Below, one piece after another: positions 13,966 to 36,471 of a stretch of 64,000 nt of DNA. The stretch comes from an uncultured Planctomycetaceae bacterium (GTDB lineage: Bacteria; Planctomycetota; Phycisphaerae; SM23-33), in NCBI GenBank assembly GCA_964401835.1, contig CAYNZP010000008.1, forward strand, positions 37,899 to 101,898, in the 5' to 3' direction. The notes beneath the pieces were generated by a model. That model did no database searches and was not told where the DNA came from. It worked only from the letters and a program-made list of their open reading frames with translations. The position numbers and the translations under genes are program-made. Every line of letters starts with the position of its first letter. Within the stretch, counting starts at the first letter, position 1.

Positions 13966-14036
13966 TGGGGATTGGTGTAACGGTAGCACGACTGACTCTG
14001 GATCAGTTAGTAAAGGTTCGAATCCTTTATCCCCAG
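13966..14036 (+). tRNA. tRNA-Gln (anticodon CUG)
   Basis: Hand-folded cloverleaf. Acceptor TGGGGAT/ATCCCCA with U1-A72 as in bacterial tRNA-Gln. T-arm AAAGG-TTCGAAT-CCTTT. Anticodon stem ACTGA/TCAGT with loop CTCTGGA. CCA is not encoded. Confidence 0.85.
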
Positions 14037-28891: not shown

Positions 28892-29491
28892 CTACTCGAC
28901 CTTTTTCAGGACGCGTTCTATCGCCTCGTACTCGGTCTGCATCTCGTTGAGTTTCGTGCGATGTTCCTGAAGCACTTCTTCGGGCGTGTTTGTCAGGTAA
29001 TCATTATCGCCAAGCTGATCGGAGAGCAGGGAAATCTGGCCGGCCAAAAGTTCCATTCTCTTTTTTAGCAGTTCGATGCGATCGTTCTGGCTTGGCGTAG
29101 CCATGACCGTATCGAACACATGTTCAGCGACATAGAAGGGCACGTCCAAGCCGACACCAAGTGCAATGGCATCGCTGGGGCGTGAATCGATTTCAATCAT
29201 CTCGCCGTCTAGGCTGATAAAGAGTTTTGCGATAAAGGTATGTTCGTGAAGATCGCTTATGACTACTTTTTGCACCTCACCACCCATCTCCTTTATAACG
29301 CTTCCAAGGAGATCGTGGGTCATCGGCCGGGGAGTTTGCATTCCCTTCAGGCGACGATCGATTGCCATAGCTTCGCTTATACCAATGAGAATGGGAAAAT
29401 TCCGCTCACCGTCTTTCTCACGGAGGAAGATTACCTGCTGATCCCCAAGTTCCGTTATGAGGATGCGCGACAGTTCAACGGGCACGTCCAT
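28892..29491 (-). CDS. Bifunctional nuclease (DUF151/BFN) domain protein with coiled-coil tail
   Basis: N-terminal 130 aa match the BFN domain pattern (ILIGISEAMAI, DSRPSDAIALGV). The C-terminal 60 aa are a heptad-repeat region. Confidence 0.6.
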   Translation of the reverse strand: MDVPVELSRILITELGDQQVIFLREKDGERNFPILIGISEAMAIDRRLKGMQTPRPMTHDLLGSVIKEMGGEVQKVVISDLHEHTFIAKLFISLDGEMIEIDSRPSDAIALGVGLDVPFYVAEHVFDTVMATPSQNDRIELLKKRMELLAGQISLLSDQLGDNDYLTNTPEEVLQEHRTKLNEMQTEYEAIERVLKKVE

Positions 29492-29586: not shown

Positions 29587-32500
29587 CTATTCCAGGCTTT
29601 CCAAAGACTCCAAAACCGCTGCCAGCTCTGCCTTTAGGGCTTCGCAGCGATGGCGTTCTTTTTCGATAACTTCCTGGGGCGCTTTTTCGAGGAAATTTTC
29701 GTTGCCGAGTTTTGCCTCAATAGACTTAATGCCGCGCTGGAGGGTTTCCTTATGCTTTGTCAGGCGGACAACTTCAGCATCACGGTCGATGATATCCAAT
29801 ACATAAAGTTTTATACCACCAGCCGTAACGGCGGAAGCATTGGCAGGTGGGCTCACTGGTTCGCTGGAGACCTTTAACTCGCCCAACGCAGCCTGCGATG
29901 TAAGAAGGTCGACGTTGTCGCCTACCATCCCAGCCATCTGAGGAGTTACTTCGATAATCGCATCGACCTTCTGGCTGGGGGCTACCTCGTGTTGTTTGCG
30001 GACATTTCTGACCTTGCGGATAAGCTCAGCCATCAGCGTGAAGTTTTCTTCTGCAGCTTTGTTGATAAAGGCAGAATCAGCCTGCGGCCATTGTGCCCTT
30101 ATCAGCATGGGCTCAGCAGCAATGTCGCCGGGGCCTCGCGATGGTGCGATGGAATTCAGCGAGGCCCAAATCTGTTCCGTGATAAACGGACAGACCGGAT
30201 GCAGAAGTCGCAGGAAAACATCAAGGCAATGGGCAACAATCGCCTTGGGCGCGTTTTCACCGGAGTTAATCCGTGTCTTGATTATTTCCAGATACCAGTC
30301 GCAAAGTTCGTCCCACATGAAGTGGTAAAGCGTATCGCAAACCTCATTAAACCTGTAACTCGACATGGCGCTGGTAACATCACGAACAGTTGCCTGCAGG
30401 CGGCTGAGTATCCAGGCGTCGGCAAGGTTTTTGGTCGGATGTATTTCTCCCCAGGTGGGAATGCCCTTCAGGTTCATCATCGCAAAACGCGAAGCGTTCC
30501 AGAGTTTGTTGCAGAAGTTCCTGCCGACGTCGAACTTCGGGCTGGTGTTTACACGTCTGCCGTCGGGAAGGTCCATTTCCTCCACCGGCATGCGGACATC
30601 CTGCGTCTGGGTCGTCATCGCTGCAAGCGTGTACCGCATCGCGTCGGCACCGTGCGAGTCGATAATATCCAGCGGGTCGATGCCGTTGCCGAGGCTCTTG
30701 GACATCTTGCGTCCTTCGCCATCCTGGATCATCGCGTGAATAAATACGTCGGTAAAGGGGATATCGCCCGCACAATACTGGCCCATCATGACCATGCGTG
30801 ACACCCACAGCGTGATTATCTCACGGGCTGTGCAGAGCAAATCGCCCGGATAATACTTATTAACTTCTGGCGTATCTTCCGGCCAACCCAGCGTACTGAA
30901 AGGCCAAAGTGCACTGCTGAACCATGTATCGAGAACGTCTGGGTCTTGTTTAAACTCGGAAATTAAATCTTTTACTTTATGGGCAGCGGTACCTGCTTCT
31001 TTACTTGGGAATTCGGGAGATGCTCGATAAGGTGCTTCTTCCCCAGGAGTATGGTTGCGAGCTTGATAAAGCTCAAAAAGCTGCTCGATTTTGTGCAGGG
31101 CGCTATCAGCACTACTTCCATTTGTGCATATATAAAACTCCCATCTTTCACCCACTACACTAACATGTTTAGCCAAGAAAGAGTTATGGGGCAAATTCAT
31201 CAATTTTGCATAGTCATCTAATCTCTTATTGAGAGTGTTGATATATGCATCAGAATCCTCAGCAGCGCAAATAAAATCGTCGTTGGCAGAAGGAACCATA
31301 GGTTCTAAGTACCATACCGGTATCTGGTGACCCCACCAGAGTTGTCGGCTTATTGGCCAATCGCGGAGGTTTTCGAGCCATGTTTGATAGGTCTTGGCAT
31401 ATCTTTCGGGCACGAATTTAACCCGGCCGTCAAGCAGGGGCTTTAGCGCCAGGCCGGCAAGTGAATTTACAGGCACATCCGTATCTTCAATAAGGCCCTC
31501 GTCGGGCATTGTCGGAATCGGCTTTTTGACGGCTACATACCACTGGTCGGACAGATATGGCTCGATCGGCACGTGGCTGCGGTAGCTGTGGCCGACCGGA
31601 TGAGTGTACTGGCGGACATCTTCGAGGAGGTTTTCCTTGCGGAACCATTCGACGATTGCTTCGCGTGCTTCGAAACGGTCCATGCCCAAAAGAATTTCGG
31701 CATCGCTTTCGGCAGCGTCTTCCCAGCCGTACTTATCGGAAATGCTGCCATCGGGGGCCATGACGTTGATAATCGGCAGGTCATGGCGTTGACCTATCTG
31801 CCAGTCGTCCGGGTCGTGGGCCGGCGTTACCTTTAAAAAGCCCGTCGAGAAACGCGCCTTCTCATCTTCGCTTTCCGGGTCGGGCAATACAACGTGCTCG
31901 TCGGCAATGATCGGAATCTTTCGGCCGACTATCGGCAGGCGAACCATCTGGCCAACAAGCAACTCCGCACGCGGGTCGGAAGGGTTCATCGCAACGGCTG
32001 TGTCGCCCAGCATCGTCTCGGGGCGTGTAGTAGCGACGGTGACATGTTCTATTTTGCAGCCGTCAATTTCCACCGGCTTGACAAGTGGATATTGCAAATA
32101 CCAGAAGTTTCCGGCAACGTCCTCGTGTTCGACCTCGTCATCGGCCAGTACTGTTTGCGTTGCGGGGTCCCAGTTTACCAGTCGCTTTCCGCGGTAAATC
32201 AGGCCGTCTTTGAATAACTTGAAGAAAGTCTCCCGCACAGCCCGTGCGCAGGTATCGTCCATGGTAAAACGAGTGCGGTCCCAGTCGCACGAGCAACCCA
32301 TAAGTTTTAGCTGGTTGAGAATGCGCTGTTCGTACTCATCCTTCCATGCCTGAACGCGGCCTACAAATTCTTCTCGCTCGAAATCGGTGCGGCGTTTGCC
32401 TTCCTCGGCGAGTATCCGTTTTTCGACTACGGTCTGCGTAGCGATGCCGGCATGGTCCGTGCCGGGCATCCAAAGCGTATTAAACTGACCCATACGCTTG

Positions 32501-32703
32501 TAGCGAATAAGAACGTCCTGCAGTGTATTATTGAGCGCATGGCCAAGGTGCAGCGGAGCTGTCACGTTGGGCGGGGGGATAACGATGCAGTACTTCCGCC
32601 TTTGGTCGGTTGGGTCTGCCGCGAACGAGCCAGCCTCAATCCAACTTTTGTAAACCTCTTGCTCTACGCTTTTGGAATTATAAACTTTGTCTAATTCAGC
32701 CAT
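29587..32703 (-). CDS. valS: Valyl-tRNA synthetase
   Basis: 1038 aa. PPPNVTAPLHLGHA (HIGH), KMSKSLGN, editing domain, and C-terminal coiled coil. Confidence 0.9.
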   Translation of the reverse strand: MAELDKVYNSKSVEQEVYKSWIEAGSFAADPTDQRRKYCIVIPPPNVTAPLHLGHALNNTLQDVLIRYKRMGQFNTLWMPGTDHAGIATQTVVEKRILAEEGKRRTDFEREEFVGRVQAWKDEYEQRILNQLKLMGCSCDWDRTRFTMDDTCARAVRETFFKLFKDGLIYRGKRLVNWDPATQTVLADDEVEHEDVAGNFWYLQYPLVKPVEIDGCKIEHVTVATTRPETMLGDTAVAMNPSDPRAELLVGQMVRLPIVGRKIPIIADEHVVLPDPESEDEKARFSTGFLKVTPAHDPDDWQIGQRHDLPIINVMAPDGSISDKYGWEDAAESDAEILLGMDRFEAREAIVEWFRKENLLEDVRQYTHPVGHSYRSHVPIEPYLSDQWYVAVKKPIPTMPDEGLIEDTDVPVNSLAGLALKPLLDGRVKFVPERYAKTYQTWLENLRDWPISRQLWWGHQIPVWYLEPMVPSANDDFICAAEDSDAYINTLNKRLDDYAKLMNLPHNSFLAKHVSVVGERWEFYICTNGSSADSALHKIEQLFELYQARNHTPGEEAPYRASPEFPSKEAGTAAHKVKDLISEFKQDPDVLDTWFSSALWPFSTLGWPEDTPEVNKYYPGDLLCTAREIITLWVSRMVMMGQYCAGDIPFTDVFIHAMIQDGEGRKMSKSLGNGIDPLDIIDSHGADAMRYTLAAMTTQTQDVRMPVEEMDLPDGRRVNTSPKFDVGRNFCNKLWNASRFAMMNLKGIPTWGEIHPTKNLADAWILSRLQATVRDVTSAMSSYRFNEVCDTLYHFMWDELCDWYLEIIKTRINSGENAPKAIVAHCLDVFLRLLHPVCPFITEQIWASLNSIAPSRGPGDIAAEPMLIRAQWPQADSAFINKAAEENFTLMAELIRKVRNVRKQHEVAPSQKVDAIIEVTPQMAGMVGDNVDLLTSQAALGELKVSSEPVSPPANASAVTAGGIKLYVLDIIDRDAEVVRLTKHKETLQRGIKSIEAKLGNENFLEKAPQEVIEKERHRCEALKAELAAVLESLESLE

Positions 32704-32741: not shown

Positions 32742-34322
32742 TTACTTCAGCAACTTGTATTCTATTGCATCTATCAAAGCAAGCCACGACGCATCGATTA
32801 TATTTTCGCTGACGCCGACGCTGCCGAAGTAGGCGGTGCTGCTGGTCTCGTGCCAATCGATAACGACTCGCACCTTGGCTGCGGTCTCCGCGGCGGTGTT
32901 TACCACGCGGACCTTATAGTCGGCCAGATGCAAATCATCTACCTGCGGATAGGCCTTGCGTAAGGCTGCGCAAAGAGCGTTATGCAGCGAATCGACCGGG
33001 CCGTCGCCTTCAGCCACCCTGTGACGAACAACACCGTCAACCAAAAGCTTAACTATTCCTTCGGTGTTGGCTGTCTCGCCGTCTCGCTTGAGTATGACGC
33101 AACGATAATGGTCAAGGTCCCAAAGCTTGCGATACCACTTTCCGCCAAGCGTTTTTCGCACGAGAACGTCAAGGCTGGCCTCGGCGGCCTCGAACTGATA
33201 GCCCTGGTTTTCCATTTCCATTATCTTTTTGAGAATCTTGCGCTGGGCGACCTTGTCTTTGGCAATCCTGTATCTCTTGTCAACGGACGCAGCGATATTG
33301 CTGACGCCTGAAACCTCGCTGACCAATATCCGCCTTGTATTACCAACGGCGGAAGGGTCCATGTGCTCGTAAGTGGCCGCGTTTTTATTTACGGCATGTA
33401 CGTGCATTCCACCTTTATGAGCGAAGGCCGAAGCGCCTACAAAAGGCTGATTTTCGCGCAGGTTAAGATTAGCCACCTCGTAGATGAACCGGCTGGCCTC
33501 GGTAAGTTTATCCAACTTGTTTCGACCCAGGCAGCTGTAACCGTATTTTACGACAAGGTTCGGTACGATAGCGGTTAAGTCAGCATTGCCGCAACGCTCA
33601 CCGATACCGTTTATCGTTCCCTGCACCTGCACTACACCGCCAGTAACAGCAGCGAGCGAATTCGCCGTTGCCAGATCGCAGTCGTTATGACAATGAATGC
33701 CAAGTCTGGCCTTGGGTAGTTTCGCTTGAACCGCGCCAAGGCATTCGCATACCTGGTTCGGCAGCGAACCGCCGTTCGTATCACAAAGCACAAGCGTGCT
33801 GGCACCAGCGCTCATGGCTGCGGCGAGCGTCTCGATTGCGTAAGCCGGATTAGCACGCCAGCCGTCAAAGAAATGCTCTGCATCGAAGATAGCCTCCCGG
33901 CGGGCTTTTTTCATATAGGCTACCGAGTCGGATATCATCCTTAGGTTTTCTTTGAGGCTTACATTTAGAACATCTCGAACGTGCAGGTCCCAACTCTTGC
34001 CGACGATGGTTACAACCTTAGCCCTGCAGGCAAGCAGAGCCTTCATGCCGGCATCGTCTTTTGCCTTCCTGCCTTTTCGACGGGTCATGCCGAAAGCAAC
34101 GATCTTCGACTTTTTGAGCTGTTTTTTACGCAGGGCCTTGAAGAACGCTTCGTCTTTTGGATTACTCAGAGGATAACCGCCTTCGATGTAATCGACACCA
34201 AGAGAGTCGAGCGTATCGACAATCAAAAGCTTATCCTCGAGCGAAAGGCTCACGCCCTGGGCCTGTGTGCCGTCTCGAAGCGTGGTGTCATAAACTTCTA
34301 TTCTTTTTCTTTTATGTGCCAT
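32742..34322 (-). CDS. cimA: (R)-citramalate synthase / 2-isopropylmalate synthase family (CimA-like)
   Basis: VYDTTLRDGTQ and HCHND(C)DLA motifs plus a C-terminal LeuA-dimer regulatory domain. About 525 aa, typical of CimA. ATG at 34322 with AAGGTG RBS preferred over the GTG at 34331. Confidence 0.75.
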   Translation of the reverse strand: MAHKRKRIEVYDTTLRDGTQAQGVSLSLEDKLLIVDTLDSLGVDYIEGGYPLSNPKDEAFFKALRKKQLKKSKIVAFGMTRRKGRKAKDDAGMKALLACRAKVVTIVGKSWDLHVRDVLNVSLKENLRMISDSVAYMKKARREAIFDAEHFFDGWRANPAYAIETLAAAMSAGASTLVLCDTNGGSLPNQVCECLGAVQAKLPKARLGIHCHNDCDLATANSLAAVTGGVVQVQGTINGIGERCGNADLTAIVPNLVVKYGYSCLGRNKLDKLTEASRFIYEVANLNLRENQPFVGASAFAHKGGMHVHAVNKNAATYEHMDPSAVGNTRRILVSEVSGVSNIAASVDKRYRIAKDKVAQRKILKKIMEMENQGYQFEAAEASLDVLVRKTLGGKWYRKLWDLDHYRCVILKRDGETANTEGIVKLLVDGVVRHRVAEGDGPVDSLHNALCAALRKAYPQVDDLHLADYKVRVVNTAAETAAKVRVVIDWHETSSTAYFGSVGVSENIIDASWLALIDAIEYKLLK

Positions 34323-34366
34323 AACCGTCACCTTTTAAATTTGTGGCTCTCGGTTCCTTTGATAAT

Positions 34367-34432
34367 AAAAAAACCCTGAAGCTGAATCCGCCTCAGGGCC
34401 TGTCTTTTCCTGTATTTCAAAGAGCCCTAAGG
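34367..34432 (-). terminator. Attenuator: terminator hairpin + U7 with alternative antiterminator pairing, in the cimA 5' leader
   Basis: Minus-strand RNA: CCCUGAGG-CGGAUUCAG-CUUCAGGG then UUUUUUU (34398..34367), 44 nt before the cimA ATG. CCUUAGGGC (34432..34424), which overlaps the leader-peptide stop codon, can pair 9/9 (one G-U) with GCCCUGAGG, the terminator 5' arm. Confidence 0.7.
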
Positions 34433-34543
34433 TACGCAGCCGATTACTATAATTACTCCAATAATGCTAATAATGCCGGCGCGAACGCTGGATACGCTTA
34501 TTTCGGCATCTTTATATACCAGATTGTCGCCAGCTTTTCGCAT
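34427..34543 (-). CDS. Ile/Val-rich leader peptide (38 aa) of the cimA-valS attenuator
   Basis: Hand translation: MRKAGDNLVYKDAEISVSSVRAGIISIIGVIIVIGCVP*. It has 8 Ile and 6 Val, with 9 of the 11 residues 24-34 being Ile or Val. Its stop codon is embedded in the antiterminator strand. Confidence 0.7.
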   Translation of the reverse strand: MRKAGDNLVYKDAEISVSSVRAGIISIIGVIIVIGCVP

Positions 34544-34590
34544 TGTTTTCTCTTATCGGCTAAACTCTTTAAGTATATCTTAGAATTTAG

Positions 34591-34618
34591 ATTATATATT
34601 ACCAACACATGGCGTCAA
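34591..34618 (-). promoter_or_regulatory. Sigma70-type promoter for the leader-cimA-valS transcript
   Basis: Minus strand TTGACG - 16 nt - TATAAT, about 50 nt upstream of the leader peptide ATG. Confidence 0.55.
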
Positions 34619-34668
34619 CGAAGATTGTATTTCCTCGGGACAGCCAAATGTTTGTGGGCTTTGTTATA

Positions 34669-34697
34669 TTGGATTCGTCGGAAAGATTTTCTATAAT
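34669..34697 (+). promoter_or_regulatory. Possible promoter for the ykgJ-hisS operon
   Basis: TTGGAT - 17 nt - TATAAT on the plus strand, 86 nt upstream of the ykgJ-like gene. GGAG RBS present. Confidence 0.3.
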
Positions 34698-34783: not shown

Positions 34784-35200
34784 ATGAGTTTGACGTGTAA
34801 ACAATGTGCTGCGAAATGCTGCAATTATTTTTGCTTTGAAATCGACGAACCGGGCGATTACGAAGAGTTCGAAGATATCAGATGGTATCTCTGCCACGAG
34901 GGCGTGACGGTACATATAGACGATGGCGATTGGTATATCTCCATCGCCAATAAGTGCAAAATGCTAGCTGACGATAACAGTTGCAGGTTTTACGAGAACC
35001 GCCCGCAGATTTGCAGGAATTATTCACAAAAAGGCTGCGATGACATAGGTGGCGATTACGGCTATGATGAGCACTTTGAAACCCCCGAACAACTCGAAGA
35101 GTATGCCAAAAAGGTTCTGGGCAAAAAGATATTCGATCGCGAGCGGGCCAAGTTTCGCGCCCGGGCAGAGCAAAAAGCCAGGAAAAACCAGGTCAAATGA
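34784..35200 (+). CDS. YkgJ-family cysteine-cluster (CxxCxxCC) protein
   Basis: CKQCAAKCC and later NSCRFY / PQICRNY motifs typical of UPF0153/YkgJ. The stop overlaps the hisS start. Confidence 0.65.
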   Translation: MSLTCKQCAAKCCNYFCFEIDEPGDYEEFEDIRWYLCHEGVTVHIDDGDWYISIANKCKMLADDNSCRFYENRPQICRNYSQKGCDDIGGDYGYDEHFETPEQLEEYAKKVLGKKIFDRERAKFRARAEQKARKNQVK

Positions 35201-36471
35201 AGATACAGTCAGTAAAAGGAACGCGTGATTTTTATCCCGACGCCATGCGTCTGCGTAATTGGATATGCGACAACTGGCGGAAGGTATCGCTGCGCAATGG
35301 CTTCGAGGAATACGACTCGCCCATTTTCGAGTATCTCGACCTTTTCACGATAAAAAGCGGCGATGAAATCGCCAGCCAGCTTTTCAACTTCACAGACAGG
35401 GGAGGGCGGTCCCTGGCCATTAGGCCGGAGATAACACCCTCGCTTGCCAGAATGGTCAACGCACAGATTAACTCGCTGCCTAGACCCATAAAGTGGTTTT
35501 CCATTCCCCGCCTTTGCCGGGCCGAGAATCCTCAAAAAGGGCGGCTGAGAGAGTTTTTCCAGTGGAATATCGACGTTATCGGCAGTGACGACGTCCTTGC
35601 AGACGCTGAATGCCTTTTAGTCGCAGTCGATTTTCTACGGGAAATCGGACTGGACAGTGATGATGTCAAAATCCAGATAGGCTCGAGGCCGCTTACTATG
35701 GCAGTTCTTAAGGCTATCGGAGTCAAAGATGGCAGCTACGAGAAGGTTCTTGCCGTCCTCGATAAGCGTCCAAAGATAGGTGAAGAAGAGTTCGCCAGGC
35801 TTTGCAAAACTGCAGGCATTGATGATGAGCAACGCGATGCTATCTGTAATTTTCAGGATGTGGAAAATATAGACGCCTTGAAATCTTTCGGGGATAAATA
35901 TTTTTCCGACTGCGAAAAGCAGCTGGAAGATATGGGGAATCTTTGGCAACGGCTGGATAAATTCGGTGTTGCAGACTATTGCGTTCTGGACATGCGGATT
36001 GTCCGCGGCCTGGCGTATTACACCGGCATTGTTTATGAAATTTTCGACGCCAAACAGTCTTTGCGTGCCGTCGGCGGGGGCGGCAGATATGACAATCTTT
36101 TGCAGGTCCTGGGAGGCCCAAAAGTTGGCGCAACAGGATTCGGCATGGGCGACGTCGTGCTGGGAATTCTGCTTGAAGAAAAAGGTAAAATCTCTTCCGA
36201 GATACTATCGGGCAGCTTGGACTATTTTGTAATTGACGGGGAAGATGGCCTGTTCTCAAAAGTAATGGAACTGGTCAGTCAGTTGCGAGCCAGGCAGATT
36301 TCCGCAGAATTCAGCTACAAACGGCAAAACATTGGCAAACAGCTCAAAGAAGCCAACCGTCGCGGTGCAAAGTCGGCCTTGATAGTTAGAGACAATGAGG
36401 TAGCAATCAAAAACCTTTCTACGGGTGAGCAGGCGGAGAAATCCCTGGACGATTTTTTAAAATCTCTTTGA
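35197..36471 (+). CDS. hisS: Histidyl-tRNA synthetase
   Basis: KGTRDFYPD class II motif 1, RPE, GGGRYD motif 3, anticodon-binding domain. Confidence 0.9.
   Translation: MKIQSVKGTRDFYPDAMRLRNWICDNWRKVSLRNGFEEYDSPIFEYLDLFTIKSGDEIASQLFNFTDRGGRSLAIRPEITPSLARMVNAQINSLPRPIKWFSIPRLCRAENPQKGRLREFFQWNIDVIGSDDVLADAECLLVAVDFLREIGLDSDDVKIQIGSRPLTMAVLKAIGVKDGSYEKVLAVLDKRPKIGEEEFARLCKTAGIDDEQRDAICNFQDVENIDALKSFGDKYFSDCEKQLEDMGNLWQRLDKFGVADYCVLDMRIVRGLAYYTGIVYEIFDAKQSLRAVGGGGRYDNLLQVLGGPKVGATGFGMGDVVLGILLEEKGKISSEILSGSLDYFVIDGEDGLFSKVMELVSQLRARQISAEFSYKRQNIGKQLKEANRRGAKSALIVRDNEVAIKNLSTGEQAEKSLDDFLKSL

Follow-up and report, generated by a model that had tools for sequence, protein, structure and literature searches.

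The 64,000-nucleotide window analysed here (part of contig CAYNZP010000008.1 from an uncultured Planctomycetaceae bacterium) carries on its minus strand a gene for (R)-citramalate synthase, cimA (32742..34322), preceded by a leader region (34620..34323) whose features, all confined to that strand, suggest a transcription attenuator that senses isoleucine and valine. The cimA product scores 667 bits against the TIGR00977 equivalog model (cutoff 450), and all models of LeuA (2-isopropylmalate synthase) stay below their own cutoffs on it, which places the protein within the CimA family. This gene would be the first under control of the leader. It is followed after 38 nt by valS, the gene for valine-tRNA ligase (29587..32703, minus strand; NF004349, 1064 bits). 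The gap between the two genes contains no hairpin and no terminator-like or promoter-like site on the minus strand, in agreement with a preliminary description of this DNA, which had placed valS 38 nt downstream of cimA without an intervening terminator.

The leader region begins with a predicted sigma-70-type promoter (34591..34618), in which TTGACG (34618..34613) and TATAAT (34596..34591) are separated by a 16-nt spacer and match the consensus at 11 of 12 positions; the transcription start deduced from this promoter would lie at about 34584. A Shine-Dalgarno-like AAGAGA (34549..34554) is located 5 nt upstream of an ATG at 34543, which opens a 38-codon open reading frame (ORF) terminated by UAG (MRKAGDNLVYKDAEISVSSVRAGIISIIGVIIVIGCVP; 34427..34543). 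The encoded peptide has no match in Pfam. It contains eight Ile and six Val, and these two residues occupy 9 of the 11 positions of codons 24-34. This run, IISIIGVIIVI (34442..34474), would supply the regulatory codons and comprises seven Ile codons (five AUU, one AUA and one AUC) and two Val codons (both GUA). The stop codon (34429..34427) is embedded in the strand CCUUAGGGC (34432..34424). The promoter, the 38-codon leader and its Ile/Val run all lie where the preliminary description had put them, and the region thereby offers a short ORF translatable from its own start and ribosome-binding site, with clustered codons for the amino acids that the operon serves.

Downstream of this ORF, two helices compete for one strand. 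The leader ORF is separated from the first structural gene by a predicted intrinsic terminator (34367..34401), whose core pairs GCCCUGAGGC (34399..34390) with GCUUCAGGGU (34382..34373), with a 7-nt loop and a T7 run (34373..34367) that ends 44 nt upstream of the cimA ATG at 34322. The hairpin, its U7 and its distance from cimA had been recognized before, with a stem of 8 bp; the stem is in fact 10-12 bp long. The 5' arm of the terminator, region 3 (GCCCUGAGG, 34391..34399), is at the same time the 3' strand of a putative antiterminator whose 5' strand is the stop-containing CCUUAGGGC. The two 9-mers pair at nine of nine positions, one of them a G-U, as had been claimed. Region 2 (34424..34444) combines this strand (2b) with AUCGGCUG (2a, 34444..34437). 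The spacer between regions 2 and 3 (34403..34423) holds a small helix, UCUUU (34423..34419) with AAAGA (34407..34403), that lengthens the antiterminator stem in folds of the nascent transcript; small spacer hairpins, judged by eye, occur in most relatives.

A further strand upstream of the ORF, region 1 (AAAGAGUUUAGCCGAU, 34555..34570, in the 5' untranslated region (UTR)), is a candidate anti-antiterminator. In the minimum-free-energy fold of the full leader it pairs with AUCGGCUG, which covers the last Ile codon and the bases that follow it, and with CUCUUU (34424..34419) directly after the stop. The region 1:2 duplex of the window has an energy of -13.6 kcal/mol compared with -7.8 kcal/mol for shuffled sequences (z -2.6), and the duplex z-scores average -1.9. 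In the alignment of the clade made with MAFFT, 81% of the positions of this helix are paired, compared with 24-62% in slid registers, and there are nine compensatory cells. Equivalent pairs in relatives are compensatory (GGCACGCGGGA:UCCCGCGUGCC; GGCACGCAGG:CCUGCGUGCC; GGCAUGCGG:CCGCGUGCC; AGGCGCGC:GCGCGCCU; GCACAGC:GCUGUGC). Pairing of a 5'-UTR strand with the last leader codons would be an unusual placement for an anti-antiterminator, a role that is likely on this moderate support.

Folding of the nascent RNA before synthesis of the terminator 3' arm, with the footprint of a ribosome masked, gave the switch expected of an attenuator. All nine antiterminator pairs form when the ribosome is placed at Ile24 to Ile32, seven form when it is at Ile34, and none when it is at the stop codon. 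In the whole window, 212 short ORFs contain an amino-acid run, three of which are followed by a hairpin with a T-run; the hairpin of the cimA leader is the strongest of these, and the window-wide scan found no comparable combination of leader-like ORF and terminator elsewhere.

These elements suggest the following mechanism. Transcription would start from the promoter at 34618..34591, and the 38-codon leader would be translated while RNA polymerase advances. When charged Ile- and Val-tRNAs are ample, the ribosome would reach the UAG and cover CCUUAGGGC; region 3 would then be left to pair with region 4, the 3' arm of the terminator, and the hairpin with its U7 would end transcription 44 nt short of cimA. 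Under a shortage of charged tRNA-Ile or tRNA-Val, the ribosome would stall within IISIIGVIIVI, 4-14 codons before the stop. Its footprint would melt the pairing of region 1 with AUCGGCUG and leave 2b free, and 2b would pair with region 3 as soon as the latter is made and before region 4 exists, pre-empting the terminator and allowing readthrough into cimA-valS. With no ribosome nearby, region 1 would be expected to hold region 2, making termination the default. The signal sensed would be the charging of tRNA-Ile and tRNA-Val, and the targets would be cimA and, very probably, valS. Together with the comparisons below, the sequence makes it highly likely that the element is a functional Ile/Val-sensing, ribosome-mediated attenuator of cimA.

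Eighty loci with relatives of the window CimA were fetched, mostly from Planctomycetota, to which the closest relatives belong (labelled Phycisphaerae or Planctomycetaceae). The layout described above recurs at about 35 of some 50 planctomycete cimA loci, as well as on about 15 metagenome contigs, and is absent at the non-planctomycete loci (L049-L080). Three relatives (L001-L003) align with the window along the whole leader, from the -35 and -10 boxes through the Shine-Dalgarno sequence and an ATGCG start to the terminator with its T-run; the alignment includes a CGCGCCGGnAUUAUU block (RAGII) and a stop codon inside CCUUAGGGC (CUUUGAGGC in L003). Among 16 close relatives, TTGAC and GATATAAT are kept in most at an equal distance from the leader ATG, which is itself kept, with GAGG or GAGGA 5-8 nt upstream of it. 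The ATGCG start, the RAGII motif, the Ile/Val run and the context of the stop are conserved, and the other leader sequence varies, as does its length. The preliminary description had proposed to ask whether relatives lack the small ORF and the paired hairpins: they carry both, an Ile-rich ORF with its stop in a complementary strand and a hairpin with a U-run.

This pattern of conservation bears on the idea that the 38-codon ORF is an independent gene, encoding a small hydrophobic (membrane) protein or a small RNA, and that cimA has its own downstream promoter. Such a gene would be formally complete as a transcription unit, with promoter, ORF and terminator, and the C-terminal half of the peptide (AGIISIIGVIIVIGCV) resembles a transmembrane segment. 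In relatives, however, the hydrophobic run is often only 4-6 residues long, too short to span a membrane, and neither the length nor the sequence of the peptide is conserved beyond the Ile/Val run and the stop context. The unit always lies directly upstream of cimA on the same strand, no promoter-like site occurs in the 44 nt before cimA, and the lack of a Pfam match also speaks against a protein of this kind, making an independent gene highly improbable.

The opposite strand of the leader is open for 117 codons (34343..34696, plus strand), and on a Logan assembly of this contig (L082, 1-312) a 104-residue minus-strand product had been called upstream of cimA. That this region codes for a 117-aa plus-strand protein is barely credible: the putative product has no Pfam match and contains the low-complexity stretch YYNYSNNANNAGANAG, a mirror image of the Ile/Val codons, the antisense frames of relatives show no evident similarity, and the protein is not called on the European Nucleotide Archive (ENA) copy of the same contig. 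The antisense ORF was therefore rejected as a gene for its low complexity, its lack of Pfam matches and its lack of conservation, and its annotation is probably a mis-annotation caused by the run of Ile/Val codons. Recognizing the attenuator would also benefit annotation, as the spurious antisense protein of one gene caller covers it.

The layout extends to about 30 planctomycete cimA loci with little similarity in the leader (Phycisphaerae/Tepidisphaerales, Planctomycetia and Ca. Kuenenia, by record title). Their ORFs contain Ile runs such as AIIIIT, GGIIIA, LIIIA, VIVVII and IIVVII, followed a few codons on by a stop that lies in a G-rich strand (for example GGGUAGGGC or CCUGAGG). This strand is complementary to the 5' arm of a GC hairpin with a T-run (GCCCUGCCC..., CCCUCAGG...). 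An upstream ORF with at least three Ile in six codons was found at 29 of 49 loci in the forward direction and at 7 of 49 in the reverse complement (p 7e-6). Across 29 loci, the best duplex that the terminator 5' arm forms with the 33 nt surrounding the stop has a mean energy of -17.3 kcal/mol, compared with -12.2 kcal/mol for dinucleotide shuffles and -8.3 kcal/mol for other leader windows (mean z -2.1). The strand that pairs best with the terminator 5' arm overlaps the leader stop in 28 of the 29, and most terminators begin 20-36 nt after the stop.

Covariation was assessed in an unfitted MAFFT alignment comprising 28 elements. Across the family, the terminator is paired at 89.9%; both sides change in 8 of its 10 pairs, giving 41 compensatory cells, a result reached by none of 500 shuffles. 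Rigid alignment of the antiterminator gives 70.4% pairing compared with 63.9 +/- 1.6% for shuffles (again none of 500 reach it) and 21 compensatory cells, with changes such as CCU..AGG to GGG..CCC. Together with the switching in masked folds, this conservation supports the attenuator geometry of the trp/ilv type that had been proposed.

The strength of these hairpins matters for the possibility that Rho-dependent polarity or mRNA stability is the main route by which the leader acts, its translation shielding the transcript, and that the hairpin and U-run terminate only partially, in a minor or constitutive way. Most loci have a strong GC hairpin with T5-T8 behind it, and a stop placed in the strand complementary to the terminator arm would have no role in such a scheme. 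Some loci would suit it better: in L008, L035 and L040 the U-run or hairpin is weak or missing by the criteria used, and the distance from terminator to cimA reaches about 270 nt. There are also precedents in Seliverstov et al. 2005 (PMC1262725), which suggests Rho-dependent termination for terminator-less actinobacterial cys-operon leaders and relates that mutation of candidate regulatory codons upstream of S. coelicolor ilvB was without effect. A mainly Rho- or stability-based mode of action for the cimA leader is considered very unlikely.

A covariance model of the 28-element alignment (R1) was searched over 607 kb. It has a single match in the window (45 bits, E 6e-8) with no second copy, and it also matches upstream of cimA in five loci outside its training set (L020, L017, L038, L033 and L035). 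One of these is Novipirellula rosea JCM 17759 (L038), which carries the element with the leader MIIRVVGIDSRP (31.6 bits). The other matches in the 607 kb are weak: two have E > 0.1, and the rest fall on the reverse strand, adjacent to the same hairpins. A pattern scan of metagenomes returned 80 loci, mostly by chance; 17 pass R1, and 16 contigs have Ile- or Ile/Val-rich leaders. Twelve of the metagenome contigs joined the alignment of the close clade (MRT...VRAGIIVAIIVPNVP and similar), and contigs that are long enough also carry cimA and valS, with a divergent pair of genes, orf138-hisS, upstream.

A contig with tandem R1 matches (L142, 902-973 and 1226-1310, plus strand) lies outside this picture. 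The matches are upstream of a small Cys-rich ORF, and the contig was set aside as a family member for having neither an Ile leader nor cimA; the matches may stem from another kind of attenuator or from terminators unrelated to this one. Another variant was seen in Gemmataceae/Fimbriiglobus (L007, L035) and in a record labelled Alcaligenaceae (L029), which have in common a leader of the form ...I.I..AAQGVR... upstream of cimA. The tail from Ile to stop is much longer here, at 14-17 codons in L007 and L035, and the R1 match is weaker in this lineage, whose geometry may differ.

Several features indicate that the leader ORF is read as codons, as judged from its sequence: its Shine-Dalgarno sequence and start are kept, its stop is spaced from the Ile run, and its codon usage is biased. 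In 26 of 32 loci the last Ile codon precedes the stop by 4-8 codons, a spacing of about the ribosome half-footprint, the reach beyond the A site. Ile is encoded by AUU in 69% of cases in the leaders (72/105), compared with 20% in the adjacent cimA genes (odds ratio 8.8, p 6e-23), and Val by GUA in 47% compared with 5%. The AUU bias does not come from local composition because other leader codons have a third-position T/(T+C) of 0.33; the upstream base composition would give 0.43. Leu codons are not enriched in the leaders, which fits an enzyme of the isoleucine pathway rather than LeuA.

These codon data also weigh on a reading in which the terminator/antiterminator switch is real but is worked by an RNA-binding protein, an uncharged tRNA or a small ligand, with the ORF incidental. 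The competing helices are conserved whatever is assumed about translation, and constraint on the RNA alone could account for the conservation of CGCGCCGGCAUUAUU and of the stop context. It would not be expected to keep the Shine-Dalgarno sequence and ATG, to hold the Ile run always in frame with the stop in the antiterminator strand (28/29 loci), or to constrain the distance from the last Ile to the stop in codon units. AUU, AUC and AUA replace one another with the residue remaining Ile, and the codon bias is strong; the Val codons of the leader track the presence of valS. The remainder of the peptide and leader varies freely, with no conserved core resembling a ligand pocket, and no match to a T-box or riboswitch family was obtained. 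A switch operated by something other than a translating ribosome is thus very unlikely, and attenuation by the ribosome is the preferred reading.

The relation between leader Val codons and valS concerns the second presumed target of the attenuator. A valS gene lies downstream of cimA on the same strand in 36 of the 80 loci, with gaps of 20-800 nt; these include most of the Planctomycetota loci, joined by two from Omnitrophota and one from an Auribacterota metagenome-assembled genome (L001-L048, L045, L065, L067). We know of no report of a linkage between citramalate synthase and valyl-tRNA synthetase (ValRS), and the conserved order is brought to light here. Val codons were counted in the 12 codons ending at the last Ile, and valS was scored as absent if not found within 3 kb. 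Leaders with valS downstream contain on average 2.43 Val codons and at least one in all 21 loci, compared with 0.29 and 2 of 7 loci when valS is absent. The Val-less leaders without valS come from several lineages. This codon composition and the synteny lend support to the earlier suggestion that valS is regulated together with cimA, and make its co-control in this genome moderately probable.

Long cimA-valS spacers contain no consistent Val-rich leader that could serve valS separately, and this candidate arrangement was dropped. A Val-rich frame was seen in one spacer only (L048, 4558-4812, 253 nt), which has a Val/Ala-rich open frame (AVVVVAVAV...VVAVVVAVVV); this frame may reflect a GTN-type repeat or may be a Val leader that serves valS separately.

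A number of observations weigh against the attenuator interpretation or limit its reach. Taken by itself, the window is not convincing: simple scans find promoter and terminator sites in numbers about equal to those in shuffled sequence, and the fold z-scores of the single sequence are unremarkable (-2.0 and -0.96). The evidence beyond chance comes from the other tests and, decisively, from comparison. The loci used for the structure tests were chosen for having an Ile-rich ORF. The metagenome relatives add nothing to the covariation of the 9-mer helix because the search pattern fixed both 9-mers. About one third of the planctomycete cimA loci have no leader (for example L004, L021, L022, L025, L026, L030, L031 and L036). 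Promoter and start site are predicted, as are termination and stalling.

Other such points concern the individual helices and codons. The comparison of free energies suggested in the preliminary description gave -18.3 kcal/mol for the terminator and -14.5 kcal/mol for the antiterminator, so that the terminator wins at equilibrium; because it is the more stable, as in known attenuators, control of the switch must be kinetic, and the masked folds do reproduce the proposed logic. Nascent window RNA without a ribosome likewise forms the antiterminator, and the default-off state held by region 1:2 is therefore not clearly dominant in the window. The covariation of region 1:2 is moderate, its score being reached by 34 of 500 shuffles. 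For the covariation of the antiterminator in the rigid alignment, a register slid by +1 scores slightly higher (0.260 versus 0.240) because its strands are runs of G and C. AUU and AUC are decoded by one tRNA, and the preference for AUU thus need not mean greater sensitivity to starvation. The association of leader Val with valS has a Mann-Whitney p of 5.7e-5 with phylogeny ignored, and in several loci cimA and valS are set apart by T-runs or long gaps.

With these points considered, it is likely that the elements form a phylum-wide attenuator family that controls isoleucine synthesis by the citramalate route in Planctomycetota (Phycisphaerae, Planctomycetia and the anammox Ca. Kuenenia), with a codon content tuned to the operon. 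In this family, Ile-only leaders would precede a lone cimA and Ile+Val leaders a cimA co-transcribed with valS, the rare codons AUU and GUA would be preferred, and region 1 would lie in the 5' UTR. The match of leader codons to operon content would make the family a clean natural example of the evolution of attenuator specificity. An Ile-rich, Leu-poor leader also supports labelling a LeuA-family enzyme as the citramalate synthase of the isoleucine pathway.

No known regulatory RNA accounts for the leader. At the Rfam 15 gathering scores, the window and 20 related loci contain tRNAs only, with no leader, ilvB motif or T-box. A scan of the leader at permissive E-values gave four unrelated, weak and terminator-driven matches, the best being the trpB motif (24.7 bits versus a gathering score of 59, E 0.3), with the PyrG leader at E 8. 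The full-text literature that could be searched describes no leader-peptide attenuator for cimA or in planctomycetes, and no regulatory RNA for cimA was found in it. The characterization of this leader as undescribed agrees with Rfam 15 and with that literature.

The mechanism itself is that of the textbook; it is the lineage, the cimA-valS operon and the sequence family that are new. The closest kin are ilvGMEDA in the residues sensed, pheST in the control of a synthetase and actinobacterial ilvB as a branched-chain case outside Proteobacteria. The ilvL leader of ilvGMEDA in E. coli and Salmonella is subject to multivalent attenuation by Ile, Val and Leu. Like the cimA leader, it has clustered branched-chain codons, mutually exclusive helices and a terminator before the first biosynthetic gene, and stalling leads to readthrough. 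No relationship in sequence was detected between the two, however, and the cimA leaders would sense Ile or Ile and Val but not Leu, have cimA and valS as targets and occur in Planctomycetota. In addition, the candidate region 1 of the cimA leader is located in the 5' UTR instead of overlying the regulatory codons, and region 2 contains the stop.

T-box riboswitches control ilv and leu genes as well as ileS and valS in Firmicutes. Their logic resembles that of the cimA leader, with low tRNA charging causing antitermination and raising the expression of biosynthetic or synthetase genes. A T-box binds tRNA directly and requires no translation, whereas the sensor of the cimA leader would be a translated ORF, and the latter has no T-box match. 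T-boxes upstream of ileS are also recorded for Actinobacteria (PMC1262725).

Synthetase genes behind leaders rich in their own codons include E. coli pheST (pheM leader) and, as predictions in PMC1262725, Streptomyces trpS and leuS, where poor charging raises expression as it would for valS. In the present case the synthetase gene valS comes second, after a gene for the synthesis of another amino acid, and codons of both types are combined in the leader. Branched-chain attenuators outside Proteobacteria, each with an upstream ORF (uORF) and a terminator and found by comparative genomics, are represented by the actinobacterial ilvB leaders (Corynebacterium ilvBNC, ilvB-II, ilvB-OMG uORF; PMC10272879, PMC11857589, PMC1262725); their target is ilvB and not cimA, and their sequence and structure are different. 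Leader-peptide attenuators have been described in Proteobacteria, Actinobacteria and a few Firmicutes, according to PMC2965389 and PMC1262725. The cimA leaders would extend classical attenuation to Planctomycetota and to the citramalate pathway.

Attenuation of this kind works only if a ribosome follows closely behind RNA polymerase, and the family would thus offer a simple genetic read-out of transcription-translation coupling that covers planctomycetes including the Gemmatales-like variants. If functional, it would point to tight coupling in a phylum whose cell plan once prompted claims of spatial separation. It would also be a natural dual-input attenuator, responding to a shortage of Ile or of Val.

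In many phyla other than Planctomycetota (loci L049-L080), cimA usually sits immediately behind an aspartokinase gene with the C-terminal ACT motif ...ISTSEIKISC..., the gap being 5-60 nt. The arrangement points to another form of coupling between cimA and the aspartate-family pathway, one based on the operon.

The ValRS of the window is 1038 aa long, and both the family models and many tblastn hits are interrupted near residues 468 and 580. This suggests an insertion of about 110 residues (~468-580), apparently also present in L001, L003, L004 and L048. Directly after valS, an ORF of 199 aa (28892-29491, minus strand) matches both the bifunctional nuclease family PF02577 (3e-34) and PF10458 (9.7e-6). 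The latter is the C-terminal tRNA-binding arm of ValRS, and its fusion with a nuclease domain beside valS is odd.

Divergently from the leader, a putative metal-chelating protein of 138 aa with a CxxCxxCC motif (PF03692; 34784-35200, plus strand) is encoded by orf138, which overlaps by 4 nt the start of hisS (35197-36471, plus strand). The same arrangement with the leader and cimA is found in the metagenome loci L110, L120 and L088. The sole match at an Rfam gathering score in the 64-kb window is a tRNA gene (13966-14036, plus strand; 66.5 bits).

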